From: an uncultured Pseudobdellovibrionaceae bacterium
Lineage (GTDB): Bacteria > Bdellovibrionota > Bdellovibrionia > Bdellovibrionales > UBA1609
DNA: 64,000 nt
Direction of reading: 5' to 3'
Assembly: GCA_964389375.1 (NCBI GenBank)
Contig: CAYMDP010000008.1
Span: 17,985-81,984 of the forward strand
The translations under genes were made by a program, and so were the position numbers. Shown here piece after piece: positions 6,488 to 55,109 of the stretch. Under the pieces are notes generated by a model. That model saw only the letters and a list, made by a program, of their open reading frames with translations. It ran no database searches and was not told the origin of the DNA. Each line of letters starts with the position of its first letter. Position 1 is the first letter of the stretch.

Positions 6488-6639
6488 GGCCTAGACCAAA
6501 ATTCTGTTAAATTTTGATCCGTATCAATTCGAGAAGCACACCCACCCAACCACGTAAGCTGCGATCTAATCTGAGAAGTTTTAAATCGAGGGAGTTCTTA
6601 TTTGCTGCAACAATCTGAGCGGCGTATACTAAGGAGACT

Positions 6640-7113
6640 TTGTTGTACGTTTTTGTTGGAAGGGGATTCACATTGAAGACCGTATTAGACATATTGACCG
6701 AAACTAAGCAAGACCTTACCTCCGTAAAACCCACAGACTCTGTACTGACCGCCATTAAGCTGATGTCCGAGCGCGATCTTGGAGCCTTGCCCGTATTGTC
6801 GGGAACTCAGTTGGTGGGAGTGATTTCCGAAAGAGATTATACTCGGAAAGTGACCTTAAAAAATCGAACGGCTGATAAAACTTTGGTGCGCGATGTGATG
6901 ACCTCAGATGTGTACTGGATATCGGCCACTCGAACCCTAGAGGATTGTCTGAAATTGATGAAGGACCGTCAGGTTCGTCACATGCCGGTGATGCACGATA
7001 ATAAGATTATTGGCTTTGTATCTGTTTTGGATGTTGTTCAAAGTATGATGAATGAGCATTCAAAAGTTGTTTCGGACCTTCAGGAATACGTCTCTAAGAC
7101 CTGGCCCTTTTAA
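6640..7113 (+). CDS. CBS-pair domain protein
   Basis: Two CBS repeats (VKPTDSVLTAIKLMSERDLGALPV; ATRTLEDCLKLMKDRQVRHMPV). The true start may be TTG 6673 (LKTVLDIL), which is preceded by GGAAGGGGA. Confidence 0.75.
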   Translation: MLYVFVGRGFTLKTVLDILTETKQDLTSVKPTDSVLTAIKLMSERDLGALPVLSGTQLVGVISERDYTRKVTLKNRTADKTLVRDVMTSDVYWISATRTLEDCLKLMKDRQVRHMPVMHDNKIIGFVSVLDVVQSMMNEHSKVVSDLQEYVSKTWPF

Positions 7114-7120
7114 TCCGTCT

Positions 7121-14400: not shown

Positions 14401-15432
14401 TTTTCGTCCGCCAACAATCCATTCTGGATTTTCTTCAATGGCATAGGTGGTTTTATCTCCAGGGGACTTCACTTCTTTCAGGACATAGCGCCCACCAGAA
14501 TGCTCAACCAGAAACTTCAGCAAACTCGGAAAATTTCCCGAACCGATATAGCCGGTGGCTGAACCTAAGACTTTCCATAAGTCCGATTCTTTACGAACCA
14601 CGGGCATCCGGAACATATGTTCAGAGTGGGCTCCGACCTTTCCGTTGATCGCATCTACATAATTTTCAGCAGTCGTGTCTTTACCGTTTCCTGGAAGCCC
14701 CATCAAGACGCGAACAGCGGGCTTGCTTATACCGAATAAAAACTTTGAGCGTTCAAGATTGACAAGACTTTCGATGACCTCGGGTTGCCCAATAATTCGC
14801 GACTCAAGATAGTTTCGGATCTCACTAATTCGTTTTGATCCCCAATCCCAAAGTTGATCTCCGGATTGCACTCCCGATGGGGGAGATTTCGCAGGAGGCT
14901 TTGGGCCGACTTTGGAATTCGGCAGACGAAGAGTGCCCGATTGCTTTGGTTTTTGCTCTAGGAGTTCGGCATAGCCTTCGAGAGTGTAAATGGGACGTTC
15001 ATCTTCGGCCGCAGCATTGCCCAGGTCTTCAATTAATTTTCGGTATTCTGGGAGGGCAGGGTTGTTTGCAAGCTGCTCGGATACGTAATGCATTAAATAA
15101 ATCAATGCGTCCACGCTACTTTTATTCGTGATTTTTCCAATTGCCCGGATGGACTCTCGAATCAGGATATCTTGAAACTCATCTGGAGGAGTGGATTTGC
15201 CTTTTAAGGGGAGGATATTTTCGATTAAGTACTGAACCAGTTTTTCGAAAGACTTGTCGATACGGTACTGACTGAGGAGCTCCATATTTTCAATGTCATC
15301 TTGAAATCTTCCGGAAGGCGGACTGTTTAAGAGCTCAAAGAATTTTTTGGGTGGCTTCTCAATGACCACCGAGTGAGCCAAGCCGCTCTGCAAAAATAAA
15401 AGCGAAATAAAGACGCAAAAAATAGATTTCAA
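11449..15432 (-). CDS. Multidomain protein: signal-like N-terminus, HEAT-like repeats, two Clp-D2-type AAA+ modules, FtsH-type M41 metallopeptidase domain
   Basis: N-terminus MKSIFCVFISLLFLQSGLAHS. AAA-1 has GLPGNGKD (Walker A Thr to Asp) and IFLNEF (Walker B Asp to Asn). AAA-2 has GMSSTGKTETA and VVLDEV, both intact. The C-terminus LLTAFHEAGHDLV...IIPG...HDAGKSDDMKRAT matches the FtsH HEXXH and downstream Asp region. TTG start after GAGGGGGG. Confidence 0.7.
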   Translation of the reverse strand: MKSIFCVFISLLFLQSGLAHSVVIEKPPKKFFELLNSPPSGRFQDDIENMELLSQYRIDKSFEKLVQYLIENILPLKGKSTPPDEFQDILIRESIRAIGKITNKSSVDALIYLMHYVSEQLANNPALPEYRKLIEDLGNAAAEDERPIYTLEGYAELLEQKPKQSGTLRLPNSKVGPKPPAKSPPSGVQSGDQLWDWGSKRISEIRNYLESRIIGQPEVIESLVNLERSKFLFGISKPAVRVLMGLPGNGKDTTAENYVDAINGKVGAHSEHMFRMPVVRKESDLWKVLGSATGYIGSGNFPSLLKFLVEHSGGRYVLKEVKSPGDKTTYAIEENPEWIVGGRKSLPDMDGPEHAVIFLNEFHNWSKEMKDIFIKQALEKGIFEVNNPNGGLTHIEVPVTFVIATNEGINLLAPRELNGQRYGETLSFEKLMENWTLNHKNHRALKNAMQATNGGVNTRGSRDEPGISEELLNRLHDEHLILLRPLSPEALKRITEMRLAELAGKISQASHLLGPLTVEWSKELVDFIQSYHYEPEENARPIETRVEAITEIPLLKAIHEGLIPRAPNGQSLKVSIETLNEGPSVLIVTSNRTREVLRLPIAITEQDREKPKIEDEKIDQILATGSSMQEKVFGVDKIIAQLTQDTLLSEEDRRAQDLTSKVPKGAAKSYMFLGMSSTGKTETAKRLAEARYGNKSALKLMDFSQVQSVRDLKEKVLGTRDLQGNPVHSDFMKEYDRTNGQMLVVLDEVANAPRDVLKALYDVLREPIVTTFSDGIARPMNGVTLIMTGNAGEDWFNQVPKDIPEVQQLAAMEIIHEEVQKNRQMRRAMLERHFSSAMINRVGENNIYVFGPLSFQAIRQLTQLNLVESIKKLKESKGKRGWNVGFTDKNQILHLIEGIENAGFVLREQGASIDRFVKQSFENGLRNLLLREKIPSGKRIAIEVLEKGDQLRSQKKDGLIRRDLKLALHIEGYEKPLVLEIKGKEDQESLKIRDEDQLLTAFHEAGHDLVRKAYFSDKTKSTRISIIPGVTPRGDEWVSYAGIAIYNFEESMVYTPELISRQIAVYVAGFIAQTLVTKGARHDAGKSDDMKRATRLALDSVLRLGLSEKFGVSAAPEGLSPEQYLSTLSASQRDVVNQEVDRLIQEGIALAEHALLANYSSSFIPLGLQLAQLGDMQVEALEAFYSKHPVIGEKHSDFRKRYDKAKITGQTKESPGILDRVQSWASQFWSSPKSSSDKALEIMKTSRDAEILDSISRPQATADIQALVQSRKTNQIQDIKLSSDLVVYSDLFSQAAPDKVSQNEFGRQGGNPISNLGAAARCEGALK

Positions 15433-31787: not shown

Positions 31788-34700
31788 CTAGAACTTAAAT
31801 TTTGGCTGAAGGATGACTCCTTGAGAATCCATTTGGTTTTTGCTTTTCACAAATCCATTTTGTGGAGTCAAAACCAAGAGTGCTTCGTGGCCTTCTCCTT
31901 TAGTGAACTTAAGAAGACCCTGCTGGCCGCCAGCAACGCGGATGACTTCTGGCATTCCGTAAAACGCGGCACCCTTCGGGCTTGGATCGATTTCAGTCCA
32001 GCGCTGAAGTTGATCCTGCAGAAAATCATCAGCTTCGATACCGTCGCTGTCCTGAAGAAGAGTGGCAACTTTTACGGCCAGCTCTCCAGTAGGGCGAAGT
32101 TTCAATGCGGACAACCGAGCCTCGAGGATAGCCACGGTCGAGCCTTGGTAAGCGAGCATCGGAAGCGCGTCTTCAACGGCTTCTCCGAAATTAAATTCCG
32201 CAGGCTTTCCTTCGGCAAGATCCGTTTCGTACTTCTTCCTCAATTCTCTCATCTTATTTGCGTTCAATAGAGCGCTTGCAAAAAGCATCGGCTGTCCATC
32301 TCCGCCGCCGGCAAAGATTCCACCCAGTTCTTGATCGGCAAGATCATCTCCATCCACATCAAACTGTACGGAAACCTCACAATAGTGCCAAGTCGTCATT
32401 GGGTTAAAGAGCTTGATTCCAATTTGTAAAACCGTGGTGTTTTCACCTTCGATATTTTTTTGGATGACTCGGTATCCAGCCGCTTGAAGATCACAATCTC
32501 TGCTGCGGAAGGAATTCTCTTCACCTCCGGTTACCTTGCGTTGATCGGCTCCGATCAAGTTAAACAAGAAGACCTCGCCGGCGTGCTCGGATTGATTGCG
32601 CAGGCTGAGTTCGGCCGCAGCATCGCTTCCGTCCTCAGGGCCACTTGCAAAAACATTTAGATCAGTGGCCTGGATTTTGGACAAGCGAGAAGCCAGAGCT
32701 AAAACGGGAAGCCTTGCGACTTCGACTTTTCCGGACTTAAGAAATACAAAGCCATCAATTTCTTGAAAGGGCTGGTCACTGTCCGGAACAGTTAACAAAA
32801 TGTCTAGGCTTAGGTTCTTTATCTCTCCGGGTTGAAGAGTTAGAGTCGGTGTGCCGGAGATATGTAAATTTGGATGACTTGAGCTATCCAAACTTAAAGT
32901 TAAGACTTGTTGAGAAATGTTCTTCACGCCAACGACTTTTCGGATCAACTTTTTGGTGTTGAGCTGTTGCAAACCCAATGACAAGCCGACTTCACTTAAG
33001 ACCACTGGAGTCGTTGCAGCTTTAAAAGTTTGAACGCGACCAGCGCCTTGTCGGCTGACCGGATAAAGCTTTCCGTCTTTTTCGTGGATGGATTTTGCAC
33101 TATTCATCAACATCGACTTCAGTTCGTGAGAGTTCAGGTCTCGGCGGTACTGCTTTAACAAAGCCATAACTCCAGCCACGTGAGGGCCTGACATTGAAGT
33201 TCCGCTAAGGGCGACGCCTTTGTTTCCGCTTCCCATCATCGCTGAAATGATATTGTTTCCAGGGCCAGTGATCTCAGGCTTAATCAATGCATCTTGTGAG
33301 CGTGGCCCTTTGGACGAAAAGTCCGTCAGTGTATCAATAAGCTCTGGCTCTTCGATCAGTTCACCTGTTGTCAGGTTCACAGTGACGGGGCCCGCAAGAA
33401 GGTCTTCTTTGATGGCTTGACCAAGATCCTGAGTGATCATGCTGGCCGGAATCTGTGCAGTTCCATCTCCACCCATTGGAAAGGCATCGCCGGGCTGATT
33501 ATTAGCGACGATGGCGCCGATAGCCCCGCTGCTTTCTGCACGCTTTAATTTTTCAACGAAGGGATTCACTCCGCGGTCGATTAAAGCGATGTTTCCTTTT
33601 AATTCTTTTTTCAAAACATCTGAGAGTTCTTTATCCGCAAGGCCAATGTACACCAATTTACCTTCTACATTTGAAGATTCGGCAATCGGCTTTGAAGCCG
33701 GGCCTTCAACGGCTTTCACCATCAAAGAGGGATGTTTTGCGCTTGAGAATCGAATGGCCCCAAAGCGCCAGTTGCGAGGCATATCGTCGATCGCAGCGGC
33801 GACAGAGATCGCTTCGTTCGAAGTTGAAGGGGCGCCGACAATAAAGTCTTCGGCTCCAGAGTTTCCAGCAGAAGCGACAACGACCGTTCCTCCTTCAGAG
33901 AGATTTTTTACGGCCTCTTGGTAAAGGATCTGAGGCTGTCCGAAGTTTCCACCTAAAGATAAGTTCACAACCTCAAGTTGGTCTGCAAGGTCTAAATCTC
34001 CATTTGGGTCAGCGGCATATTCAAGACCGGCGATCACTACGATGTCACTGGTTGAGCCTCCAGCGCCGAAAACCTTAATCGCATGAAGCTTGGCTTGAGG
34101 GGCCACTCCAGAGTAGGTGCCAATGCCATCGCCAATTCCAGCGACCGAGCCTGCAACGTGAGTCCCGTGGCCGGACTCATCAATTGGATTAGCGTCAGGT
34201 TTCGGCACAGTTTCTTCGAAGTTTTCAGATGCAGAATTAAAAGCAGAGCCGGTCAAGTCAATCCCGCCAACCACCTTTTGGTTGGGGAAAAGTTCGGAGG
34301 CCTCAGATGGATTGATTTTCTCAAATAGACCCGCGTCTCCGGGGCCGCCCATCATTGTATGAGTGTAATCAATCCCAGTATCTAAGATGCCGACCTGGGT
34401 TCCGGTTCCATCAACAGGGACCTGTTCGCCATCTTTGTTTAAGGCAAATAGTTCACGATGAACTTGATCCGCTCCAATAAAAGAGACGGAATTGTTTTTG
34501 CTAAGATCTTGATTTGAAGTGGCCTTCAGATTTGAGGTCTGAACCTGAGGGCGAGCAAATGATGTCGATGATTCAAAGCTTCGAACCGAAGGAAGGTTCG
34601 GGATTTGATTTTTTACCGATTCTGGAACAACAAGTGCTAGTCCATTTAAAATCATTTTGTAGCGAAACACGATTCGAATTTCTGGTGAAATGCTTTGAAG

Positions 34701-34991
34701 CTGGCGTATGACTTCGGCCTGCTCTAACTCTATGGCGGCTTTTGCTTCATCCGGGATCAAGCGATCTCCGTTTGGTAAGTGCACAGCCTGAGACAGTAAG
34801 GCGGGCTGAGAGAGTTTTACGATCGCCAAAAACTTATCGCGGTTTTGTGGACGGTCACTGATGAGGGCCTCGTCTCCTGAAGAGGTCGTCGCCGGGTGAC
34901 GGCTTTGGCTTGATTCAAGAAAATTCGAGCAAGCCATTAAGCTCGAATTCAATACAACGACAGCGACCAGTGGAAGGTACTTCCCCAACAT
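31788..34991 (-). CDS. Large subtilisin-family (S8) serine protease lipoprotein with an inserted PA domain
   Basis: Lipobox LMAC. Catalytic motifs VGILDTGIDYTH, GHGTHVAGS and SGTSMSGPHVAG. A PA-like insert is present (GNIALIDRGVNPFVEKLKRAESSGAIGAIVANN). Confidence 0.9.
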   Translation of the reverse strand: MLGKYLPLVAVVVLNSSLMACSNFLESSQSRHPATTSSGDEALISDRPQNRDKFLAIVKLSQPALLSQAVHLPNGDRLIPDEAKAAIELEQAEVIRQLQSISPEIRIVFRYKMILNGLALVVPESVKNQIPNLPSVRSFESSTSFARPQVQTSNLKATSNQDLSKNNSVSFIGADQVHRELFALNKDGEQVPVDGTGTQVGILDTGIDYTHTMMGGPGDAGLFEKINPSEASELFPNQKVVGGIDLTGSAFNSASENFEETVPKPDANPIDESGHGTHVAGSVAGIGDGIGTYSGVAPQAKLHAIKVFGAGGSTSDIVVIAGLEYAADPNGDLDLADQLEVVNLSLGGNFGQPQILYQEAVKNLSEGGTVVVASAGNSGAEDFIVGAPSTSNEAISVAAAIDDMPRNWRFGAIRFSSAKHPSLMVKAVEGPASKPIAESSNVEGKLVYIGLADKELSDVLKKELKGNIALIDRGVNPFVEKLKRAESSGAIGAIVANNQPGDAFPMGGDGTAQIPASMITQDLGQAIKEDLLAGPVTVNLTTGELIEEPELIDTLTDFSSKGPRSQDALIKPEITGPGNNIISAMMGSGNKGVALSGTSMSGPHVAGVMALLKQYRRDLNSHELKSMLMNSAKSIHEKDGKLYPVSRQGAGRVQTFKAATTPVVLSEVGLSLGLQQLNTKKLIRKVVGVKNISQQVLTLSLDSSSHPNLHISGTPTLTLQPGEIKNLSLDILLTVPDSDQPFQEIDGFVFLKSGKVEVARLPVLALASRLSKIQATDLNVFASGPEDGSDAAAELSLRNQSEHAGEVFLFNLIGADQRKVTGGEENSFRSRDCDLQAAGYRVIQKNIEGENTTVLQIGIKLFNPMTTWHYCEVSVQFDVDGDDLADQELGGIFAGGGDGQPMLFASALLNANKMRELRKKYETDLAEGKPAEFNFGEAVEDALPMLAYQGSTVAILEARLSALKLRPTGELAVKVATLLQDSDGIEADDFLQDQLQRWTEIDPSPKGAAFYGMPEVIRVAGGQQGLLKFTKGEGHEALLVLTPQNGFVKSKNQMDSQGVILQPKFKF

Positions 34992-35330
34992 AAAATCCCC
35001 CTTTAACGAACATCCCGAGCGAGACCTTAGTTGAGGGGTCCGAGCCTTGTAAAATTAATATTGTAAATAACACCCATAGAAATTTAATATGGCTGAGTCT
35101 GACAGAAATTGGGGCAGGGTAAAGCAGCATGCCCTTCCTGCGCAAAGACTAAATTTTTAATAAATTCAATTACTTATACGGTCCCCTCGGATGGCCTGAG
35201 AAATCCACCTCGAGGAAAGCTTAGTTTTAAGCTTAAGCAGAGGGCAGATTTCTATAGAATGTTTACATCCCGTATCAAAACTGAGATTGTAATTAACGGA
35301 CCGCAAAATGAATTAATTAGGGAGATTCTG

Positions 35331-36155
35331 ATGTTTAAGACTGTAATTGCGACAAGCCTCTTACTGCTGACTTTGCTTTTGAATTCGACTGCGACGCAAG
35401 CTCAGTCTTTGGGCTTTGATAATGTCAGTGAGGATGACCTTAAAAAAATTGTTTCCGATCTGTCTTCAAATTTTACCCACACATCTGTGTCCGGTGCGGG
35501 AGCACTAGGTACAATCTTTGGGTTTGAATTAGGAGTTGTGGGTGGAATGACCAGCACTTCGGAGTTGGATAAACTTGTTAAAAGTTATGATGCGAGTGCA
35601 AGTGCCGATCAGGCGATTCATGGTGGGATTTTAGGTATGTTGTCCGTTCCCCTTGGACTGACTGCAGAGGCCCTGTTTGTTCCAGCAGTTGGATCTGAGG
35701 ACTTCAAGTTTAACACTCTCAGTTTAGCTCTAAAGTGGACGATGACTGATACGGTTTTAAGTGGTTTGCCAGTTGATCTTGCGGTGAAATTTCATATGAA
35801 TCAAACCGGATTAAAGTTTAAACAAGTGATCTCTCCGGATCCATATGAAACAGAATTGGAGTTTAAGAATCAAATTTTGGGGGCGCAGCTTCTTGTTAGT
35901 AAGAGTCTAGTTCTGGTGACACCCTATGCTGGACTTGGAATGCTTCAATCCGAAGGGGAGTTGTCCTTCTCGGGCTCTTCGGGAAATATCTTTGATTCGA
36001 CCTATACGACCTCGACTTCTGCAAAGGTCAAAGCCTCCAGTAGTCAGTTTTTAGCTGGAGTTGAATTGAATCTGCTCCTTCTTAAAGCAGGCCTTGAGAT
36101 CTCGAGACAGTTTTCTGCAGATCGGATCACCGGAAAGATCGCTTTCTCATTCTAA
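35331..36155 (+). CDS. Putative outer-membrane beta-barrel protein
   Basis: Signal peptide MFKTVIATSLLLLTLLLNSTATQAQS, AGGGAG SD, alternating-hydrophobic strands, and C-terminal ...GKIAFSF ending in Phe. Confidence 0.5.
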   Translation: MFKTVIATSLLLLTLLLNSTATQAQSLGFDNVSEDDLKKIVSDLSSNFTHTSVSGAGALGTIFGFELGVVGGMTSTSELDKLVKSYDASASADQAIHGGILGMLSVPLGLTAEALFVPAVGSEDFKFNTLSLALKWTMTDTVLSGLPVDLAVKFHMNQTGLKFKQVISPDPYETELEFKNQILGAQLLVSKSLVLVTPYAGLGMLQSEGELSFSGSSGNIFDSTYTTSTSAKVKASSSQFLAGVELNLLLLKAGLEISRQFSADRITGKIAFSF

Positions 36156-36217: not shown

Positions 36218-37015
36218 GTGAATACCCAAGAACAAAGCCAAAATAAAAAGACCGAACTTGAAAGCGAAATTTCTAGGCTTGAGGCCCTGGCTGAACCCAC
36301 ACCGGAAGATGTCGAAAAAGTTGAAAAGCTAAAAGACCAGCTTGCAGAAATTCAAGCCATAGATTTGACTGTCGCAGAATCTTCAGGGGTTCACTTTCGC
36401 TCGCTGACTGAAATCGAGTTAAAACGTTTGGCCGAATTCGCCGCTCGTTCCCCAGGTTTTGCTAAGCTAAAGGTCGAAGAAAAAGTGGATCGATTGGCAT
36501 TGGCAGTCACTCAAGGCTTTGGATTTGGGTCTTTTAATGCAAACCTCTTGGGCCAAGGTGCTAAAGCCTTTTCGATTCCCGAGGATTTTCCTTTTGAAAA
36601 TTATCTTGAGAGTTCGACTTATGGATCGGGAGATCAAAAACATAAATATTCTGATGTTGGACAAAAAAGTTTTAAAATTGATCGTCTGTACTTAGCCGAA
36701 CTTTTGGGATCGGGTCCAGAGCCGCAAGCTCAGGCTGAAGAACCCATTCGAAAAAAAGTACAAGCCAGTCACCCAAGCCCTCAGCCTGTAGTTTCTAAGG
36801 CCGCGGTGAAAGCGGCTCCAGTTAGAACTGCGGCTGCTCCAAAGTCTCAAGCCTCTGTACCCGCACAAAAACCAAAGATTCAAGAGGGGCCTAAACCACT
36901 GGCTTCCAAAGTAGAAGGGTCGAATGTAGAAAGGGCCAAAAAACCTTGGCTGATTCCGGCTGTAGCAATTGGAGTCGTCGCGGTATTAAGCGCACTGTTT
37001 TTTGTCTTAGCTTAA
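36218..37015 (+). CDS. Hypothetical tail-anchored protein (coiled-coil N-terminus, Pro/Ala/Lys-rich linker, single C-terminal TM)
   Basis: No signal peptide. The C-terminal WLIPAVAIGVVAVLSALFFVLA is the only hydrophobic helix. Confidence 0.5.
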   Translation: MNTQEQSQNKKTELESEISRLEALAEPTPEDVEKVEKLKDQLAEIQAIDLTVAESSGVHFRSLTEIELKRLAEFAARSPGFAKLKVEEKVDRLALAVTQGFGFGSFNANLLGQGAKAFSIPEDFPFENYLESSTYGSGDQKHKYSDVGQKSFKIDRLYLAELLGSGPEPQAQAEEPIRKKVQASHPSPQPVVSKAAVKAAPVRTAAAPKSQASVPAQKPKIQEGPKPLASKVEGSNVERAKKPWLIPAVAIGVVAVLSALFFVLA

Positions 37016-38391: not shown

Positions 38392-39147
38392 ATGAAGGGG
38401 ATAACGGGGATACTTTTAGGAAGTTTACTTGCTGCGCAAAGTGCCTTTGGCCAAGTCGCAACAAACTACAATATTCAGTCGAACTCGGCTGGAGCGACAT
38501 CAGAAATCGTCAATAGCAACCAGTCCCAAGATAAGATCTTGAGTGGTTTTTTACTGGAAAAACTAAAGCCCATCCTGATGAAGAATCCTTACGTAGCGGG
38601 AGTTGACTTTGCCCCAGGCGCCGTAAAAGACGAGCTTGGCAGTTCGTGGACGGACTATAATTCGAAGAATCGAGTCTCCCATGTTTTTGTGCAACTTAGT
38701 TTGCCGACCCGTGTGGGGATGATGTTTGAAGTGACGGAATCCTACCGGGTGTGTAAGCCGCCTGCTGCCGGGGCAGTTGTGGTTTATGATGAAAGCTCTG
38801 GAGCGCAAATCGGGGGCGGGGGAGATTGTGCCCTAGAGTCAGACCTTAAAGTTCGCGGTCCGATTGCTGTCTATGGAAGCTTTTCGAGTGCCGAGAATGT
38901 CGACGCGCTTTTAAGAGATAAGCAAACCTTTCGCATAAGTGCTTCAAAATCCTATGACAAAAAAAATCTGGAGGTGACGAGTCGTCTGACTTTGGAGTCG
39001 AACCTCTTCGAGAAAAATTTCGTGAAGTTTTTAAAGATCTTCAGAGTTCAGACCGCTGAAAACTTTGAGCAGTTCGTTTCTCGTCAGGTGTTCTTAGTTG
39101 GAGTGGCGCGCTTAGAAAGACAGATCAATGAGGAGTTATTGCGATGA
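38392..39147 (+). CDS. Secreted protein of unknown function, first gene of the subtilase operon
   Basis: Signal peptide MKGITGILLGSLLAAQSAFG and GGGAGG SD. The stop overlaps the start of the next gene (ATGA, 39144-39147). Confidence 0.5.
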   Translation: MKGITGILLGSLLAAQSAFGQVATNYNIQSNSAGATSEIVNSNQSQDKILSGFLLEKLKPILMKNPYVAGVDFAPGAVKDELGSSWTDYNSKNRVSHVFVQLSLPTRVGMMFEVTESYRVCKPPAAGAVVVYDESSGAQIGGGGDCALESDLKVRGPIAVYGSFSSAENVDALLRDKQTFRISASKSYDKKNLEVTSRLTLESNLFEKNFVKFLKIFRVQTAENFEQFVSRQVFLVGVARLERQINEELLR

Positions 39148-41075
39148 TGGCAAAATTAAGCTTAAGTTTAGTGGTCCTTCTCCTTCTTGGAGCCTGCACC
39201 AAGCAAGCCCCCGAACAAAAGGCTGCGGCACATAAATCTTCTGATGTTGTAGAAAACGAAATGGTCGTCAAGGGGGACAAACAAGCGATCGAGTCGGTTT
39301 TGGCAAAGGCGGGAAGCTCTGCAGATCTTTACGCATTGATTCCAGGCCAGGATATCTATCAGGTCCGAATCCATTCTAAAAAATGGGACATGGACCAAGC
39401 TTTAGCCGAGCTTAACAAGACAGCGGGTGTTGAGTATGCCGAGCCGAATTTTCGGGTTCACTTGGTTTCAAATTTAAATCTTCACGAGTGGCCCAAAGAT
39501 CAAATGTTCTTTAAGCAATGGGCGCTGAATAACGTTGGACAAAGTCCTCCCTTCGGGATTCCCGGAGAGCGTGGGGCGGATATGGATGTCATGAAGGTTT
39601 GGCAGACGGTCACAAAAGGTTCGGACCAAGTCGTCGTGGCTGTTATCGATACAGGCGTTGATTATTCACATCCCGACTTAAAAGACAATATGTGGATCAA
39701 CGAAAAGGAATCCCCACTTCACGGCGGACTTCCTGGAGTTGATGACGACAAAAACGGCTATTATGATGACGTTTACGGATATGACTTCACCTCAATGGAT
39801 CGCAAGGCACTTCACTACGGGCAACTTGGTGATCCTGATCCAATGGATGAAGATGGACACGGGACCCACTGCGCCGGAAGTATAGGGGCGACTGCCAATA
39901 ATGACCGTGGAATCACGGGTCTAAATTGGAATGTTCAAATCATGGCTTTAAAAGGATTGTCTGGAGCAGGGGGAAGCTCTGCCGATCTTGCACGTGCGAT
40001 TTATTACGCGGCAAACAAGAATGTCGACATTATGTCGAACTCCTGGGGGGGAGGGAACGAGTCTCAGCTCATAAAAGGGGCCATTGCTGAGGCTCAAAAG
40101 AAGGGCATCTTGTTTGTCGCGGCTTCCGGAAATGACGGAAAAAATAACGACGTCGAAAAGAGCTATCCTGCAGGCTACAAGACAGATCACAAAAATCAGC
40201 CTTTAGAAAATATCTTAAGTGTCGGAGCGAGCGACAATCAAGACAACGCGGCGGATTTTTCGAACTACGGACATCAAAGTGTTCACGTCTTTGCGCCTGG
40301 GGTTGAGATCATCAGCACATATCCAGTTGCTAAGACTCCGGAAGGACGTCAACCCTATGCAGTGATGTCTGGGACTTCGATGGCCACGCCCTATGTTTCG
40401 GGAATTGCGGCTTTGATGCTTGCAGCTGACCCCAGTCTTAAAAAGCGTCCGGACTTGATGAAGCAAATCTTAATTCAGTCTTCGGACCAAAAGCCTGGTC
40501 TTTTAGGAAAAAGTGAATCCAATGGTCGGGTGAATGCCTATAAGGCCGTGACGATGAAAGCCTCTGGACAAAGTGCAAAACCGCAATGGATCGAAAAGAG
40601 TCTTTCGATCAACCAGCGTGGATACACTCAAGAGCTTGTCGACATTCAAAAAGAAATCTCAATTCCTGAAGCGAAAGCGATTCGCGTTCACTTTGATTTT
40701 GTTCAGATTCAAGAGCCCTTCGATAGCCTTTACATCTACGATCAAAATCATCGCTTGATTTCTAAAGTTGAAAGCACTGAAGACCTAGATCATTGGTCTG
40801 CAGCGATTCCAGGAAACAAAGTCTATGTGCGCTTTGTGAACTCTAAGGTTCGGCAGTTCACTGCCGGTCTTCAGCTGACAGAATCTAGCGAAAGTTCATG
40901 CCTAACTAAGGGAGCCCTAGAGGTTGTGCAGATGGGCGCTGATAAATTCAGTTGTTCTATTGATGCGCCGACGTCGACCGGTTCTGGAGAAACGATTTAC
41001 AACAACTTTGGATCTCAGGGTTACAGTATCGACCGAGTGGCTTACCTTTTAGATGATAAAGCGAAGAAAGAATAG
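39144..41075 (+). CDS. Subtilisin-family (S8) serine protease lipoprotein with a C-terminal CUB-like beta-sandwich
   Basis: Lipobox LLGAC. Complete catalytic set: VAVIDTGVDYSHPDL, DGHGTHCAGS, ASGNDG and SGTSMATPYVSG. Confidence 0.9.
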   Translation: MMAKLSLSLVVLLLLGACTKQAPEQKAAAHKSSDVVENEMVVKGDKQAIESVLAKAGSSADLYALIPGQDIYQVRIHSKKWDMDQALAELNKTAGVEYAEPNFRVHLVSNLNLHEWPKDQMFFKQWALNNVGQSPPFGIPGERGADMDVMKVWQTVTKGSDQVVVAVIDTGVDYSHPDLKDNMWINEKESPLHGGLPGVDDDKNGYYDDVYGYDFTSMDRKALHYGQLGDPDPMDEDGHGTHCAGSIGATANNDRGITGLNWNVQIMALKGLSGAGGSSADLARAIYYAANKNVDIMSNSWGGGNESQLIKGAIAEAQKKGILFVAASGNDGKNNDVEKSYPAGYKTDHKNQPLENILSVGASDNQDNAADFSNYGHQSVHVFAPGVEIISTYPVAKTPEGRQPYAVMSGTSMATPYVSGIAALMLAADPSLKKRPDLMKQILIQSSDQKPGLLGKSESNGRVNAYKAVTMKASGQSAKPQWIEKSLSINQRGYTQELVDIQKEISIPEAKAIRVHFDFVQIQEPFDSLYIYDQNHRLISKVESTEDLDHWSAAIPGNKVYVRFVNSKVRQFTAGLQLTESSESSCLTKGALEVVQMGADKFSCSIDAPTSTGSGETIYNNFGSQGYSIDRVAYLLDDKAKKE

Positions 41076-41086
41076 TGGGGACGAAT

Positions 41087-42262
41087 ATGAAAAACACGAG
41101 CAATAAAATCACAAGTCAAAGGGTCCTGGGCTTCGGAGGACTTTTGTTCAGTTTAGTTTTTTCGGTGGCCTGTACGCAGACCTTAATTTTATTTAAGCCA
41201 AGTCCCTATATTGACCCGATGCCCGTCGATCAAAATCCGGTGGGCCAGGGGGCTGATCCGATGTTGGACAAACAATGGAGTCTTGCAAAAGTCGGATTAA
41301 GCAAAGAAACTTTTTCGGACTTAAAGTTTCAAGGCAACTACAACGTTAAGGTTGCAATTCTGTCGACTGGGATTGATTACAATCATGAAGACCTAGTGGG
41401 TCAGATTCATGTCAATCGCGCCGAGATTTCTCACAGTGCTGCGGGTGAAAAGCCTGGAGTGAATCAAAAGGACGAGGATGGAAATGGACTCGTCGATGAC
41501 GTCGTCGGATACGATGTCGTGGATGGTGATGGCTTTGCTTACGATCGTCATGGAGCTGGAACGGCCGTTGCTGGAATTATCGCAGCAAAACGCAACAACG
41601 GAGTTGGGATTGCGGGTTTAATGGGCCAAGTGTCTTTGTATCCGATTCGCTATATCAATGATAACGGCCAAACCTCAATTGGAAATCTAGTCTCTGCTTT
41701 GGAGGTCGCAAAGAAGGTAAAGCCTGATGTTATATTTATCCAGAATACCCAATTTCGCATTGGGGGCTACGAAATGAATCCTCAAGTCGCCAGCGCAGAA
41801 CTTTCGATCCTAACTGCGAATCTTCAAGAGCTTCAAAAGCTTAAGATCCCCGTTGTGGTTGGAGCTGGAGACGAACTAGGAACCTTTGGCGACAACGAAC
41901 TCGAAAAGATGCTGAGAAGTTTTGATAACATTGTGATCGTAGCCTCGACGACGAGCAAAGATAAAAAGGCTTTGCTGTCTAACTTCAGTCACCAAAATGT
42001 TTTGACGGCGGCTCCTGGTGAAGAAATTTTGACCACGAAGCCATTAAATAAATACGGTGTGGTCAGTGGAACGGCCTACGCTGCAGCTCACGTCACGGCC
42101 GCCTTGGCTTTGGCAAAGTCTGCCAAAGGTGAAAAGTTGTCTTATGATGAGGTTATCCCAAAACTGATTTCCAAAGATGGAAGTGATCAGCTTGAAGACT
42201 TGATGACAATGTCTCGTGGTGGAAATCGTCTTCAGATTTCGAAATTTTTAGAATCTTTGTAA
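41087..42262 (+). CDS. Catalytically degenerate subtilase paralog (pseudo-protease) lipoprotein
   Basis: It aligns with the upstream S8 gene, but the motifs are VAILSTGIDYNHEDL (Asp to Ser), VVGAGDELG (Asn to Asp) and SGTAYAAAHVTA (Ser to Ala); only His (DRHGAG) is kept. Lipobox FSVAC. A GTG at 41075 overlapping the upstream stop is an alternative start. Confidence 0.8.
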   Translation: MKNTSNKITSQRVLGFGGLLFSLVFSVACTQTLILFKPSPYIDPMPVDQNPVGQGADPMLDKQWSLAKVGLSKETFSDLKFQGNYNVKVAILSTGIDYNHEDLVGQIHVNRAEISHSAAGEKPGVNQKDEDGNGLVDDVVGYDVVDGDGFAYDRHGAGTAVAGIIAAKRNNGVGIAGLMGQVSLYPIRYINDNGQTSIGNLVSALEVAKKVKPDVIFIQNTQFRIGGYEMNPQVASAELSILTANLQELQKLKIPVVVGAGDELGTFGDNELEKMLRSFDNIVIVASTTSKDKKALLSNFSHQNVLTAAPGEEILTTKPLNKYGVVSGTAYAAAHVTAALALAKSAKGEKLSYDEVIPKLISKDGSDQLEDLMTMSRGGNRLQISKFLESL

Positions 42263-42545
42263 GGACCAGTACGGGCTGCACCATTGCTCTAATTCATTTA
42301 TTTGTGGGGAGAGTCCTTCTCCTCAATTCTTTACCGCAACATTTTTGAACCTCGATATCTGGAACCTCTGTGAGGCTCTGGCATTGATGAAGCCAGTTTT
42401 ATGAGATTTTATGTCTCTTCTGGTGCGTCTTTTGTCCGGACACCGCCCGACCTAAATCTAGATTCAATGCCTTGCTTCAGTTTGTCGCCTCAGGACTTGA
42501 GGGGTCTGGGCTTAAGATCTTTTGAGGGGAATTGGGGAGGACAGG

Positions 42546-43754
42546 ATGTTGTCGTTAATTTTAAGTTTATTTGTTTCTGTTGGTGTTTACGCAAAGCCCT
42601 CTGGGCAAAAGGTCCTTGGTGATCTTTCATTACTAAAAAAAGTCGGCGCAAAAATCTTGGATCAGGACTCTGAGATTCAAGTGGGTTTTGCCGAAGTCAA
42701 CTCAAGTCAAATGGAGCAAATTTCTGAAGCCAATCATCAGCTCGGACGCTGTGCAGGTTTTGAGTTAATTGAAAGTGAGCCGGCTCTGCAGTCCACCAAA
42801 GTTTCCTCTCCCTTAAAAGCCTTGCGGCAAAGATACGAACAGGACCGAAAGTTTAAAAGTTTAAGCCAACTGACAAGCCAAATTCAAAAGCGTCCTGAAA
42901 TTGAAGAAGCTCTTGGGAAAATTGATCCATCACAAATTCGCTCTAAGGTCGATTGGCTTTCTTCGTACCCTTCCAGAGACCATAGAAGTCAGGATCCGAA
43001 TATTCATGTTCGAGATTTCGAAACCAGTTTAAAAAATCAGTTTAAAGACATCTCCTGGGCGAGTGTTCAACAAGTTCCTCACTCACGAACAAAACAGAAT
43101 TCTTTAAAAGTGCGACTTGAGGGCAAATCATTTCCAAGCGAGATCATTGTCATGGGTGGACATTTAGATTCTATCACCCAGGGTTTTGGCGGTGGGGCGA
43201 GTCGGAATGCACCGGGCGCTGATGATAATGCCTCCGGTTCTGCCGCATTGGCTGAAGCACTGCGGATATTAATGGGGCTTGGCCAACCAGAGCGAAGCAT
43301 CGAAGTGTTTTGGTATGCGGGCGAAGAGGGCGGCCTGATTGGCTCTGGAGAGATTGCGGCCTCCTATAAGCGAGAGAGCAAAGATGTGATTGCAGTTCTT
43401 CAACTGGACATGGTTCTTCATGCGGGATCTGGTGAATTGACCATTGCAAATATCACGGATTTTACGAGTCCCTGGCTTAGAGAGGTCCTTATCCAATTAA
43501 ATAGCCACTACATTGGCGCACGTCTTGTCGAGGATCGCTGTGGTTATGCTTGTAGTGATCATGCCTCTTGGTATCGTCAGGGCTTTCCAACGGCGATGCC
43601 CTTTGAAGCCATGACCAGAAATATGAATGACGATATTCACACTCCGCAGGATAAAATCTCGGCGAGCTCTAATTTTACCCATGCAGCGGCCTTTTCAAAA
43701 ATGGCCCTGGCTTTGGCGATGGAGCTTGGGAACAGTCGGATACGGCAGCCTTAG
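42546..43754 (+). CDS. Secreted M28-family aminopeptidase
   Basis: GGHLDS, PGADDNASGSAALAE, AGEEGGLIGS and LQLDMV metal-ligand motifs. GGAGGA SD before ATG 42546. Confidence 0.85.
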   Translation: MLSLILSLFVSVGVYAKPSGQKVLGDLSLLKKVGAKILDQDSEIQVGFAEVNSSQMEQISEANHQLGRCAGFELIESEPALQSTKVSSPLKALRQRYEQDRKFKSLSQLTSQIQKRPEIEEALGKIDPSQIRSKVDWLSSYPSRDHRSQDPNIHVRDFETSLKNQFKDISWASVQQVPHSRTKQNSLKVRLEGKSFPSEIIVMGGHLDSITQGFGGGASRNAPGADDNASGSAALAEALRILMGLGQPERSIEVFWYAGEEGGLIGSGEIAASYKRESKDVIAVLQLDMVLHAGSGELTIANITDFTSPWLREVLIQLNSHYIGARLVEDRCGYACSDHASWYRQGFPTAMPFEAMTRNMNDDIHTPQDKISASSNFTHAAAFSKMALALAMELGNSRIRQP

Positions 43755-43907: not shown

Positions 43908-45089
43908 GTGATGCCTAAGTTTTTTTATATCCTACCCCTTCTTTGCCTTGTCCTGGGATTCTCCTTTGTTGCTTCGGCTCGAGGTCAAAAAGGACGCATT
44001 CTATATTTAGAAGAACCAACTCCCTTGATCGAAGAGGCCAGACTCTTTCGCTTTCAAGCTGAAGGTCTGGATGTTGTTGGGGCTGATATCGGACCCGAGC
44101 AAGGTGTTCCGGTTGTTTTGGTCGGTGGCTATACTTATTCCTTTCCCTACTTACGTAAATTTATTCGAGCGCTAAATGACAAGGGCTTTCGGGTTTTCGT
44201 TTATAACCCTCCCGGTCAGGGTTTGGGTGTTTTAGAAAGTGGAGTGGGATCGAGTTCGGATCAATTAGGCATCGATGGGATGTTAAAGATTCTTCCGGCC
44301 ATTCGCCATCACGCATTTGCCGCAACAGGAGGCCAGCAAGTCGTGGTGATCGGTCATTCACTCGGAGGGCTTCAGGTTCGGGCGGGATCTTTGGGGATTC
44401 GGTTTAACCAAAAGGGTGAAGCCTATTTCTCGAAGGCCGCATATATTCAGTCACAAAGAGAAACGGCCTTGATCGTTCCGATGTTTTCTTTGCCGATGAT
44501 CGGCGATGAGATGTGGAGCGAGGCGGAAAGCAAAAAGGTCTTGTTTATGAAGGACATGGTTCCGGCCCTGACCTCTTGCTTTCAAGGCTTGAACTGTATG
44601 CTTCCAAATTCGATAGGCCAAATTCAAGATAGGTTGATTGCAAGCTACCTAAAACAAGTTCAAGGAAATTTACATCGAGGTCTTTTTGGAAGTCGGGATC
44701 TTGATGAAAACGAGATTGAAGCCATTAGTCGATATTTAATGCCCCATAAAGTCTCTCGGCAAATTCGGGAGGATATGACGAGGTGGGTGGATTCAAAATC
44801 CTTATCGACCAGTTCCGGCTTTGACTTTGGAAAGCTTTGGTTTGCAGTTCAGACGGGCAGCATGGCGTTTGAAACGCTTTACATCGCAGGCGAAGATGAT
44901 TCTTTGACCGAGATGAAGCCCTTTGCGGATGAAGCGAAACGACTTCCCAGCGCAAAGTTAAAAATTGTTCCCTCAGGGCATGTTGGAGCTTTTATTAGCC
45001 AAAAGCTCCCGGACCAATTGGCAAAATGGATCCGAGAGCATAAAAAACAGATTCAAGTGAAATCCTGTGGGAATATTTTAGTACTTTAG
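43908..45089 (+). CDS. Secreted alpha/beta-fold hydrolase (lipase/esterase-like)
   Basis: Signal peptide MMPKFFYILPLLCLVLGFSFVASA, VVIGHSLGG nucleophile elbow and C-terminal PSGHVG. Confidence 0.65.
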   Translation: MMPKFFYILPLLCLVLGFSFVASARGQKGRILYLEEPTPLIEEARLFRFQAEGLDVVGADIGPEQGVPVVLVGGYTYSFPYLRKFIRALNDKGFRVFVYNPPGQGLGVLESGVGSSSDQLGIDGMLKILPAIRHHAFAATGGQQVVVIGHSLGGLQVRAGSLGIRFNQKGEAYFSKAAYIQSQRETALIVPMFSLPMIGDEMWSEAESKKVLFMKDMVPALTSCFQGLNCMLPNSIGQIQDRLIASYLKQVQGNLHRGLFGSRDLDENEIEAISRYLMPHKVSRQIREDMTRWVDSKSLSTSSGFDFGKLWFAVQTGSMAFETLYIAGEDDSLTEMKPFADEAKRLPSAKLKIVPSGHVGAFISQKLPDQLAKWIREHKKQIQVKSCGNILVL

Positions 45090-53308: not shown

Positions 53309-53465
53309 AGAATTCTCCTTCTAGTTCAAAAAAATGAATACTTAGTGGCTTAGTAGATTCATTTGGATCTTTGTTTAGGTCTTTTACAGCCCTGCTTGAC
53401 TCCACGCAACACAAATGTTACGCATCACGTCACATTTATATCTACCCCCAGATTTGAGGTCCTTA

Positions 53466-55109
53466 ATGAATAAGCGCATCTGCTTTTTTGCTTTAACCCT
53501 GTTCCTTTGTGTTTCTTCAGCGCGGGCTCAGGATTTCACTCAAATTCAAACCTCCCTGAATAAGATGACGGCGCCTCAGTTTCAGCTTTTAGATCTACAT
53601 TCTGGCTATGGATCCGAATACATTTTGCAGTTCTCCGCAGGGCGAAGCTTTCACCTTAGTTCAGCTGAAGACCACTTCCTAAGAATCAACCCAAGCGGCC
53701 AAATTGTAGTTCTTAGAGCCGATAAAAAGTCAGAAGAGATTCGTTGTGCAGACCTAGAGAGCAGTCAAATAATCCAGAAACTTGTCAGTCAATCTCGAAG
53801 CCTTCCTTTTTTTGGTGTGTGTGGTGGCCGAGTGTTTATTCGGAACAAAACCAACGGATACCAGAGTCGCGTAGAGTGGGGGAGTAGTGTTCTTCGAGAT
53901 AACTTTGGAGAGCTCGGAGAGCGCCTCGTGGATGCGGTTAAATTATTTCGCCCAGACCGAGGTTCCGCTGCGGAGGTGACCGGTCACGGTCGTGCAGGCT
54001 CTGGCGCAGGTCCGGAGGGGCTCCTTCCGGCCAAAATCTCTGCCCAATATAAAGATGCAAAACTCCGACCTGGGGACTTGGGAATTCAAGTCGCTGGGGA
54101 GGCCGAGGGCATGCTAAATCCCGGACATTGGTATCAGGCCAAAAACTTTCCGGATTTTGCTGTGAGTATTATTTCGGCCTCAATGATCGATGAAAATCTT
54201 CTCAAAACCCACAAGGACCGCGTCGGGGAATTGGATAGTGCAGAACAAAGTAACCTCGTCTACCTCGTTGCCTGGGATGCCGACAGATTTGGTCTTGGAT
54301 GGGTCCACGGCACGCAACACCCCGGTGTCGAATGGTCTCCGCGTGCAGAACATGTTGACCGGAATCCCCCACAGGGCCCCGATGGTTTTGGAAGTTTAGA
54401 TCCATTTGTTGGGGTGGGTGCTGTTCGTCCGGACATTGTCCCCAAAGTTGTGGCTACATTTTCTGGCGGATTTCAAAGACGTCACAGCGCTTTTAAGTTC
54501 GGCGAACTGAGCCAAGCCAACAAAGGCCACCACTATGGATTTATTGAGGATGGTGTTGTTTTAAGTCGCCTACAGCCTTCATTGGCGACGATCTATGTAG
54601 ACCAAAATGGCAAGGTGGATCTTCGCACCTGGCAGGCCGGGCTTGCCAACGAAAATTCGCTTAAATTCGCTAGGCAAAATGGTGTGCCACTGATCGAAGG
54701 GGGCACGAACACCACCTCGGGAGTGCCCGGTCGATTCGTTAATAGTTGGGGCGCTGGAAACTGGTCCGGAAGTGTCGATTCAAAGCTTCGAACTCCCCGT
54801 GCAGCGGCTTGCCTCGTCCGTGAGGGGCAAAAGTCCTACTTTATCTACGCGTACTTCAGTAGCGCGACCCCCAACTCGATGGCTCGAGTTTTTCAAGCCT
54901 ACCAATGTGATGAAGCGATTCACCTTGATATGAATAGTGCAGGACAATCCTATTTTAGTATTTTTAAGCAAACGGGCCCGCTGAAATTTGAGATTGAACA
55001 TTTGGTTAAAGAAATGGCGGGCGTTGACTCCAACGTGAATGGAAAAGCCACACCTCGATATCTTCTGAAATCGGACTATCGTGATTTCTTTTACTTAAGA
55101 GAACAGTAA
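53466..55109 (+). CDS. Secreted protein, distantly phosphodiester-glycosidase (NAGPA/DUF2233)-like
   Basis: Signal peptide MNKRICFFALTLFLCVSSARA. The C-terminal half shows the pattern FSGGF...RTPRAAACL...AIHLDMNSAGQS, resembling GGFF...RTAIG...ALNLDGGGS. Confidence 0.4.
   Translation: MNKRICFFALTLFLCVSSARAQDFTQIQTSLNKMTAPQFQLLDLHSGYGSEYILQFSAGRSFHLSSAEDHFLRINPSGQIVVLRADKKSEEIRCADLESSQIIQKLVSQSRSLPFFGVCGGRVFIRNKTNGYQSRVEWGSSVLRDNFGELGERLVDAVKLFRPDRGSAAEVTGHGRAGSGAGPEGLLPAKISAQYKDAKLRPGDLGIQVAGEAEGMLNPGHWYQAKNFPDFAVSIISASMIDENLLKTHKDRVGELDSAEQSNLVYLVAWDADRFGLGWVHGTQHPGVEWSPRAEHVDRNPPQGPDGFGSLDPFVGVGAVRPDIVPKVVATFSGGFQRRHSAFKFGELSQANKGHHYGFIEDGVVLSRLQPSLATIYVDQNGKVDLRTWQAGLANENSLKFARQNGVPLIEGGTNTTSGVPGRFVNSWGAGNWSGSVDSKLRTPRAAACLVREGQKSYFIYAYFSSATPNSMARVFQAYQCDEAIHLDMNSAGQSYFSIFKQTGPLKFEIEHLVKEMAGVDSNVNGKATPRYLLKSDYRDFFYLREQ

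Follow-up and report, generated by a model that had tools for sequence, protein, structure and literature searches.

The window analysed here is a stretch of 64,000 nucleotides (nt) from an uncultured Pseudobdellovibrionaceae bacterium (assembly GCA_964389375.1, contig CAYMDP010000008.1, positions 17,985 to 81,984 of the forward strand), and all positions given below for this DNA are counted from its first letter. Between 38392 and 42262 it carries three genes that are co-directional on the + strand and are referred to here as A, B and C: a small secreted protein (A), an S8 subtilase of the active type (B) and a second protein with the S8 fold (C). A preliminary description of this DNA had reported three overlapping or abutting genes and had interpreted the last of them as a maintained pseudo-enzyme. 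The open reading frame (ORF) listing agrees with the former, giving A at 38392-39147, B at 39144-41075 and C ending at 42262. As regards the latter, we consider it very probable that C is a pseudo-subtilase lipoprotein of ancient origin which selection has maintained, and that it is obligately encoded and inherited together with the small secreted protein and an active lipoprotein pro-subtilase. The genes and their junctions are as follows:

38392..39147, + strand: gene A, ORF with ATG start and ribosome-binding site (RBS) GGGAGGG; secreted protein of 251 amino acids (aa)
39131..39147, + strand: A/B junction, RBS GAGGAG followed by an ATGA start/stop overlap, as read from the sequence
39144..41075, + strand: gene B, ORF of 643 aa; S8 subtilase lipoprotein precursor, active-type by sequence
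41073..41089, + strand: B/C junction, with the B stop codon TAG (41073-41075), a GGGGA element and the ATG of C at 41087
41087..42262, + strand: gene C, in an ORF that opens at GTG 41075; S8-fold lipoprotein

The likely start of gene C is ATG 41087, which is preceded by the RBS-like element GGGGA and matches a database entry of 391 aa (P0001). This ATG lies 11 nt past the stop codon of B, while the alternative GTG at 41075 overlaps that stop by 1 nt; residue numbers of C are counted from this GTG throughout. In other loci of the same type (see below) the spacing ranges from -4 to +61 nt between A and B, and from -14 to +14 nt between B and C.

Catalytic positions and architecture of the two subtilases

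Gene B matches the Pfam family Peptidase_S8 (PF00082) with an expectation value (E) of 7.5e-64, and a Fervidolysin-type N-terminal prodomain (PF22148, E = 1.9e-6) was recognized at residues 23-102. Its parts are located as follows:

39195-39197, + strand: lipobox Cys18 of B (motif)
39210-39449, + strand: prodomain of B, residues 23-102 (PF22148)
39624-40493, + strand: catalytic domain of B, approximately residues 161-450 (PF00082)
39648-39650, 39858-39860, 40131-40133 and 40377-40379, + strand: catalytic residues D169, H239, N330 and S412 of B, respectively (alignment with subtilisin BPN')
40566-41072, + strand: C-terminal domain of B, residues 475-643 (no family match)

The complete D/H/N/S set that had been ascribed to B is thus borne out by the BPN' alignment, and it recurs in 118 of the best 120 B orthologs, the two exceptions being alignment gaps. 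A lipobox-like motif was found in 98 of 113 full-length orthologs, with a median Cys position of 18, N-terminal to the prodomain; for both B and C the lipobox was called at motif level. The C-terminal domain (about 170 aa) is conserved in the family and had no match in Pfam; by eye it is CUB-like, an impression that no profile supports. Mean identity among the B orthologs amounts to 24% in the prodomain, 55% in the catalytic domain and 37% in the C-terminal domain. Subtilases generally shed their prodomain autocatalytically (PMC7200643), and because the lipobox Cys of B precedes the prodomain, mature B would lose its lipid in the same step.

Gene C also matches Peptidase_S8 (PF00082, E = 3.9e-24). 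The AlphaFold2 (AF2) model, built from an alignment of 37 sequences, had a predicted local distance difference test score (pLDDT) of 89.4 and a predicted template modelling score (pTM) of 0.86, and a Foldseek search with this model returned subtilase catalytic domains with a probability of 1.00, headed by deseasin (3vv3), Plasmodium SUB1 and thermitase. The positions that matter for its activity and anchoring are:

41171-41173, + strand: lipobox Cys33 of C (motif, family alignment)
41174-41230, + strand: conserved tether of C, residues 34-52 (family alignment)
41363-41365, + strand: S97 of C, equivalent to D32 of BPN' (alignment)
41549-41551, + strand: His159 of C, equivalent to N62 of BPN' (alignment)
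41555-41557, + strand: A161 of C, equivalent to H64 of BPN' (alignment)
41870-41872, + strand: D266 of C, equivalent to N155 of BPN' (alignment)
42074-42076, + strand: A334 of C, equivalent to S221 of BPN' (alignment)

The motifs VAILSTGIDY, VVGAGDELG and SGTAYAAAHV, on which the preliminary description had based a loss of three of the four catalytic residues, are all present in the protein. The loss itself was confirmed, and its extent has to be revised: all four positions are replaced (D32S, H64A, N155D and S221A), as the alignment with BPN', a phmmer comparison with deseasin 3vv3 and the profile hidden Markov model (HMM) agree. The difference in count arises because His159, in the segment DRHGAGTAVAG, aligns to Asn62 of BPN', two residues before the position of the catalytic His, which is occupied by Ala161 (RHG-A-GTAVAG in C versus xxG-H-GTHVAG). 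The BPN' and 3vv3 alignments show no catalytic residue at a shifted position. Several candidates for such a shift were considered and rejected. His159, besides sitting at BPN' position 62, gives way to Q, N, Y, V or another residue in approximately 15% of the family members; Asp101 corresponds to the structural Asp36 and is conserved in B too; and Ser331 corresponds to the variable position 218. A new triad of Ser97, His159 and Asp266 was excluded because His159 is not conserved, and no functional triad could be assembled in C from the family alignments checked. The glycines that bind backbone have been kept: G100 and G154 are found in 100% of the C family, G127 in 89% and G128 in 84%.

The lipobox of C, likewise part of the earlier claims, is well supported, Cys33 being invariant in 37 of 37 aligned sequences and a lipobox-like motif being present in 99 of 115. 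No prodomain was detected in C, either as a Pfam match or as an extra folded domain in the AF2 model, and the protein runs from a signal peptide through the lipobox and a tether of about 30 residues directly to the start of the mature domain. Since C lacks a prodomain, its lipid anchor would be permanent. The family consensus following the lipidated Cys reads C-T-Q-T-V-I-L-F-K-P-x-P-x-I-D-P-M-P and had no match in Pfam; residues 41-60 were modelled with moderate confidence (pLDDT 76-81). This confidence, together with the conservation from the Cys onward, suggests that the tether is not a floppy linker. Active S8 peptidases combine a catalytic triad and oxyanion Asn with a removable prodomain, and C has neither, so that the name under which members of this family are found at NCBI, 'S8 family serine peptidase', is misleading.

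Maintenance, linkage and distribution of the module

A search of 5.8 billion proteins yielded 176 relatives of C at E < 1e-10, of which the best 120, reaching down to 38% identity, were analysed. Most of these are about 375-415 aa long, apart from a few shorter ones that have the length of fragments. The column of D32 contains Ser in 112 sequences, Gly in seven, one gap and not a single Asp; Ala is found in 108 of 120 at H64 and in 101 of 120 at S221, and the N155 column contains 77 Asp and 25 Glu. When aligned with hmmalign and written in the order D32, H64, N155 and S221, the tetrads read SADA in 71 sequences and SAEA in 22, the others being minor variants, and DHNS did not occur among the 120. 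Conservation of the substitutions in orthologs, which had been put forward as a check, therefore holds as S-A-D/E-A in 93 of 120. No frameshifts or stops were seen in the C orthologs. The ratio of nonsynonymous to synonymous substitutions (dN/dS, omega), a further check proposed at the time, amounted in the least saturated locus pair, L003/L083 (dS about 1.5), to 0.019 (C), 0.029 (B) and 0.044 (A); most other pairs were unusable due to saturated dS, L003/L083 being informative and L001/L088 partly so. Among the nine pairs with at least 50% identity in C, the dN of C did not exceed that of B in eight, the exception being L003/L004 (0.11 versus 0.10). C is under purifying selection as strong as that acting on B, and conserved substitutions, intact ORFs, an omega of about 0.02 and a confident fold all uphold the view of C as a maintained pseudo-enzyme instead of a decaying pseudogene.

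A total of 102 positions are conserved in at least 85% of the C family, and 49 of these depart from the B consensus. Many of the C-specific conserved positions correspond to BPN' 31-32, 61-67, 92-101, 107, 152, 217 and 224-225, which, from the established structure of subtilisin, we take to line the catalytic site and the S1-S4 subsites. I96 (100%) and L107 (98%) are more conserved in C than in B. Judged from these alignments, the pseudo-active cleft of C is remodelled yet strongly constrained, which argues for a retained binding function beyond the preservation of a scaffold. The deep clades of the family carry other tetrads: GYNS and GYNN (Uabimicrobium type), GHNS (L091), SDNF (L005), GYSH (L090), GQAH (L087) and GANF (L086). 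None of them has Asp32, while Asn155 and Ser221 persist in several and His64 in one, which suggests loss of Asp32 as the founding event, with further erosion following after it. The family would thus seem to record a stepwise loss of catalysis, and may offer a natural series for the transition from protease to pseudoenzyme.

The pairing of the genes in relatives, which had also been named as a point to check, proved to be strict. All 14 complete loci that were inspected have the order A-B-C, with unrelated flanks: the window itself, L001 (a metagenome-assembled genome (MAG) of Bdellovibrionales), L003 and L004 (the complete chromosomes of Candidatus Uabimicrobium amorphum and Candidatus Uabimicrobium sp.), L005 (a Bacteriovoracaceae MAG), and the metagenomic loci L081-L083, L085, L086 and L088-L091. 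On L002 and L087, both truncated contigs, B-C is present. Three of the complete loci were reached through B orthologs on long contigs, picked as candidates for B without C because no C partner was listed for them; all three carried A-B-C with the dead S8 downstream, and neither a C without B nor a B ortholog without C occurred among the loci examined. Over 91 locus pairs the divergences of B and C are correlated (Pearson r = 0.95, Spearman 0.65), which indicates co-inheritance. A recent tandem duplication of B as the origin of C was rejected, as B and C together were monophyletic in 0 of 100 neighbour-joining bootstraps that included outgroup S8 proteins, whereas the B clade was recovered in 92% and the C clade in 98%. 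C therefore forms an old lineage of its own and did not originate recently from the adjacent gene.

Among the matches listed, A-B-C is found in the Bdellovibrionota and in the planctomycete Candidatus Uabimicrobium, a phagocytosis-like predator, i.e. in two unrelated predatory lineages. The Uabimicrobium modules are located at 3444-7158 in L003 (NZ_AP019860.1) and at 3454-7098 in L004 (NZ_CP165719.1), and L083 carries one as well; B and C of the Uabimicrobium type are approximately 41% identical to those of the window. The restriction of the C family, among these matches, to predators of two phyla suggests a role in predation. In Bdellovibrio bacteriovorus another subtilase, Bd2269, which is separate from the C family, has been reported as a prey-lytic protease (PMC12546842). 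Dead members of the C family were also sought in other phyla; genome hits at about 30% identity (L006-L080) turned out, after alignment with hmmalign, to be nearly all S8 proteins with an intact site, mostly DHNS and often very large. A B/C pair attributed to a cyanobacterial MAG lies on a 3950-nt contig labelled Calothrix sp. SM1_5_4 (P0117/P0239), which is probably a mis-binned Bdellovibrio-like contig. In a Dehalococcoidia MAG (L043, CAZAPT010000015.1) two tandem S8-like ORFs at 5875-7329 and 7614-9155 have the tetrads GDNE and SDNE; these are apparently dead subtilases from another phylum, unrelated to the C family.

Gene A encodes a protein with a signal peptide of the signal-peptidase-I type, ending near G20/Q21, and its family shares an invariant pair of cysteines, C121 (38752-38754) and C146 (38827-38829), as well as an invariant G156-P157. 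It had no match in Pfam, NCBIfam or PADLOC. The family is small: an exhaustive HMMER search of 1.84 billion proteins, needed because a word-indexed homology search gave only one relative, resulted in 46 representative clusters. The AF2 model is confident (pLDDT 89.1, pTM 0.83). Its only Foldseek matches are weak, all of them to Bet v 1/START (SRPBCC) helix-grip folds (E from 6e-4 to 1e-2, target-normalised TM score 0.3-0.5, root-mean-square deviation 9-18 A), and this likeness may be regarded as a lead, not as an assignment. The possibility that A is an I9-type prodomain acting in trans was rejected, given that no prodomain or protease-inhibitor fold was returned by the Foldseek search of the PDB. 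Every one of the 14 complete loci has a gene in the place of A, ahead of B. Most of these genes are detectably homologous to A; in L005 and L091 the homology is weak, and in the Uabimicrobium type, in L086 and in L090 it is borderline or absent. L086 and L090 nevertheless have the Cys pair in the middle of the protein, and homology between the Uabimicrobium-type and the Bdellovibrionota-type gene A is not demonstrable.

Downstream of C a consensus scan identified one further feature:

42305..42325, + strand: terminator-like hairpin with a T-rich tail

This hairpin probably marks the end of the operon, in a scan that is weak on its own (10 such sites in the region versus 5.2 expected). No regulatory RNA was found in the leader or in the operon. 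The surroundings of the module in the window are rich in hydrolases, with an M28 metallopeptidase (42522-43754, + strand) and an alpha/beta hydrolase (43908-45089, + strand) following it and, at 31788-34991 (- strand), an S8 protease of 1067 aa that has a PA domain and in which the D/H/N/S set is intact. All three neighbours are absent from the other loci, and because the flanks are unrelated between loci these genes are considered to lie outside the unit. Upstream of the module, a DUF6588 protein (35109-36155, + strand) and a 265-aa protein without a Pfam match, whose hydrophobic C-terminal stretch may be a membrane anchor (36218-37015, + strand), are likewise not conserved beside it elsewhere. 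Farther away, the window contains a 1327-aa ORF with AAA_2 and Peptidase_M41 domains (11449-15432, - strand), FtsH-like and about twice the usual size, and two large ORFs of 824 aa (7121-9595, - strand) and 564 aa (53415-55109, + strand) with no Pfam match at E <= 1e-5.

Possible roles of the pseudo-subtilase

We propose, with a probability that we put somewhat below one half (roughly 45%), that C is a partner of B which lacks catalysis, is anchored in the membrane and serves to dock or retain the mature protease and/or to gate it through the cleft of C. A-B-C would then be an envelope protease module of predatory bacteria with B as its catalytic subunit. B would cut off its own lipidated prodomain and so lose its anchor; at the membrane, the mature protease would then be docked or retained by C, anchored via its Pro-rich tether. 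The cleft of C, presumably unable to hydrolyse peptide bonds, may bind a peptide ligand, which could be a substrate, the tail of the B prodomain or its own tether, and would thereby control where and when B acts; A could be a soluble accessory protein, possibly a ligand binder. The data establish the loss of the catalytic residues, the upkeep of C by selection, an intact fold, the obligate linkage of the genes, the co-divergence of B and C and their lipoprotein and prodomain architecture; a physical interaction of B with C (and A), an anchoring or regulatory role of C and a link to predation are inferences from these. The proposal draws on the maintenance of C despite its lost residues, the constrained cleft, the strict partnership of the genes, the place of the B lipobox ahead of the prodomain together with the prodomain-free anchor of C, and the precedents of dentilisin and Csp (see below). 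Of the functions named in the preliminary description (substrate capture or decoy, anchor or chaperone, inhibitor-like regulator), that of an anchor has thereby gained a concrete structural rationale.

Several observations weigh against this docking and gating role. No B-C fusion protein was found among the best 120 matches of either family. With a mean identity of 24%, as compared to 55% in the catalytic domain, no other part of B is as poorly conserved as its prodomain, where nothing hints at an added constraint through contact with C, and the removal of this prodomain is assumed here by analogy with the general behaviour of subtilases. In the deepest comparisons the subtilase domain of C is about 1.5 times as divergent as that of B (mean distance 0.95 versus 0.63). 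Finally, approximately 90% of the C members show a deletion or remodelling of the region around BPN' 166, the floor and loop of the S1 pocket, which makes canonical substrate binding uncertain.

Alternatively, C may be a sensor or regulator of the type known from the Csp proteins, in which the cleft binds a small-molecule or peptide signal, for instance a prey-derived one, and allosterically licenses B, with no role in anchoring. A precedent exists in CspC and CspA, dead S8 proteins that occur with the active CspB, sense germinants and control CspB (PMC7200643). The concentration of C-specific conservation at the pseudo-active site fits such a role, as does the fixation of the replacements as S/A/D/A, the pseudo-active residues of CspC being strictly conserved likewise; the weak resemblance of gene A to a helix-grip fold, which is ligand-binding, points in the same direction. 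However, the pseudo-active site of CspC and CspA is still occupied by the uncleaved prodomain, a domain that C does not have, and the replacements vary between the deep clades (GYNS, GHNS, SDNF and GYSH), which speaks against a single conserved ligand chemistry across the family. We regard this explanation as rather unlikely.

Distinctly unlikely, in our opinion, is a direct action of C on the prodomain or active site of B. In this case C might serve as a sink for the cleaved, lipidated prodomain and so speed up activation, or its own tether (…ILF-K-P…) might be an uncleavable inhibitor that silences B in the envelope of the predator. In favour of this, C is a prodomain-less subtilase body that has retained the two surface helices and the cleft glycines, and its tether is conserved from the Cys onward, with a pLDDT of 76-81 at residues 41-60. 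X-Pro bonds are poor substrates for proteases, and short N-terminal extensions are able to block intracellular subtilisins. On the other hand, the B prodomain lacks any extra conservation, and the cleft residues differ between B (S125, W126 and A107) and C (Q125, L126 and L107), so that one prodomain tail need not suit both.

It is improbable that C works apart from B, as a non-enzymatic surface binder such as an adhesin for envelope proteins of the prey or a decoy for prey protease inhibitors, with the linkage of the two genes reflecting co-regulation. The lipid anchor, the conserved groove and the confinement of the family to predatory lineages among the matches listed would agree with such a function, and some surface subtilases do double as adhesins. 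Yet the strict adjacency and overlapping junctions in 14 of 14 loci from two phyla, together with the correlated divergence (r = 0.95), exceed what is usual for co-regulation, and the loci examined include no C without B and no B without C. That C might be a pseudogene in decay or an artefact of annotation, as its lack of any catalytic residue might be read, has a negligible chance and is already refuted by the present data, which include an ORF intact in 120 orthologs down to 38% identity, an omega of about 0.02, a confident fold, 102 positions conserved in at least 85% of the family and a conserved signal peptide, lipobox and RBS.

A more far-reaching version of the proposed docking and gating role can be formulated, in which A-B-C would be a predator-specific envelope protease machine, possibly shared by horizontal transfer between the Bdellovibrionota and Candidatus Uabimicrobium, C the obligatory subunit that positions a releasable B for the attack on prey, and A the protein that senses or carries a prey-derived ligand. 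This version is speculative and, on balance, unlikely.

Comparison with known subtilase systems

The best matches of the C body, both in sequence and in structure, are S8A subtilases of the deseasin MCP-01, Plasmodium SUB1 and thermitase type; for deseasin 3vv3 the sequence comparison gave E = 2.3e-26, and Foldseek E = 9.5e-28 with a target-normalised TM score of 0.83. They share with C an Asp-rich insertion loop, DEDGNGLVDDVVGYD, which we take to be a calcium-binding loop. Deseasin, SUB1 and thermitase are active enzymes made with prodomains, whereas C has neither tetrad nor prodomain and is lipid-anchored. Membership of the module in an anti-phage defence system was considered and rejected, as PADLOC gave only its generic 'subtilase' model and all three proteins are exported; the score for IetS was 24.5 bits, with no stretch passing the threshold alone, and that for IteS 19.9 bits against a cutoff of 900. 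No description of the C family was found in the literature on pseudo-subtilases or in that on the subtilases and proteases of Bdellovibrio and Uabimicrobium.

In terms of membrane logic the closest match, by analogy, is dentilisin of Treponema denticola. The products of the operon prcB-prcA-prtP, a lipoprotein subtilase (PrtP) and two accessory proteins, assemble into a complex anchored in the membrane; the acylated propeptide of PrtP is removed upon activation and is no longer part of the mature form, which owes its anchor to the lipoproteins PrcB and PrcA1 (PMC8167434). Both systems are three-gene operons, and the lipobox of B likewise lies upstream of the prodomain. The accessory proteins PrcB and PrcA, however, do not have the subtilase fold, the gene order differs, and the complex has been demonstrated for dentilisin, whereas for A-B-C we would expect one by inference. 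Against the PrtP model (NF033595, cutoff 300) B scored 135.7 bits and C 44.2 bits; the score of B lies below the cutoff, which indicates that B is not a PrtP ortholog. Nor are A and C equivalent to PrcA and PrcB, A being without a family match and C having the S8 fold.

The closest known system is CspBA-CspC of Clostridioides difficile, from which the C family differs in having arisen independently and in its architecture. In the Csp operon an active subtilase, CspB, is regulated by CspA and CspC, which have a dead subtilase fold (PMC7200643). The two systems resemble each other in that a dead S8 protein is co-encoded with an active one, is kept by selection and has fixed residues in its pseudo-active site. 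The differences are considerable. B scored 31.2 bits against the CspC model (NF040808, cutoff 675) and 35.9 bits against the CspBA model (NF040809, cutoff 1250), and C reached 21.3 bits for CspBA only, with no match to CspC. CspA and CspC keep the Asp and an uncleaved prodomain, while C lost all four residues and has no prodomain. The Csp proteins occur in soluble form in the spores of Gram-positive Firmicutes, while C is a lipoprotein of diderm predators. Moreover, the Csp system has no equivalent of gene A, and CspB and CspA are fused, an arrangement unseen for B and C (best 120 of each).

To our knowledge, well-studied bacterial pseudoproteases are few, and the Csp proteins are the main example among the subtilases. 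The C family adds a second, independent case of a pseudo-subtilase, in which all four residues are gone, a prodomain is lacking, the anchor would be permanent and the link to an active partner and gene A is obligate. If the proposed role of C is correct, it would also be the second independently evolved instance of the control of an active subtilase by a pseudo-subtilase, following a membrane-anchored and prodomain-free logic unlike that of Csp.

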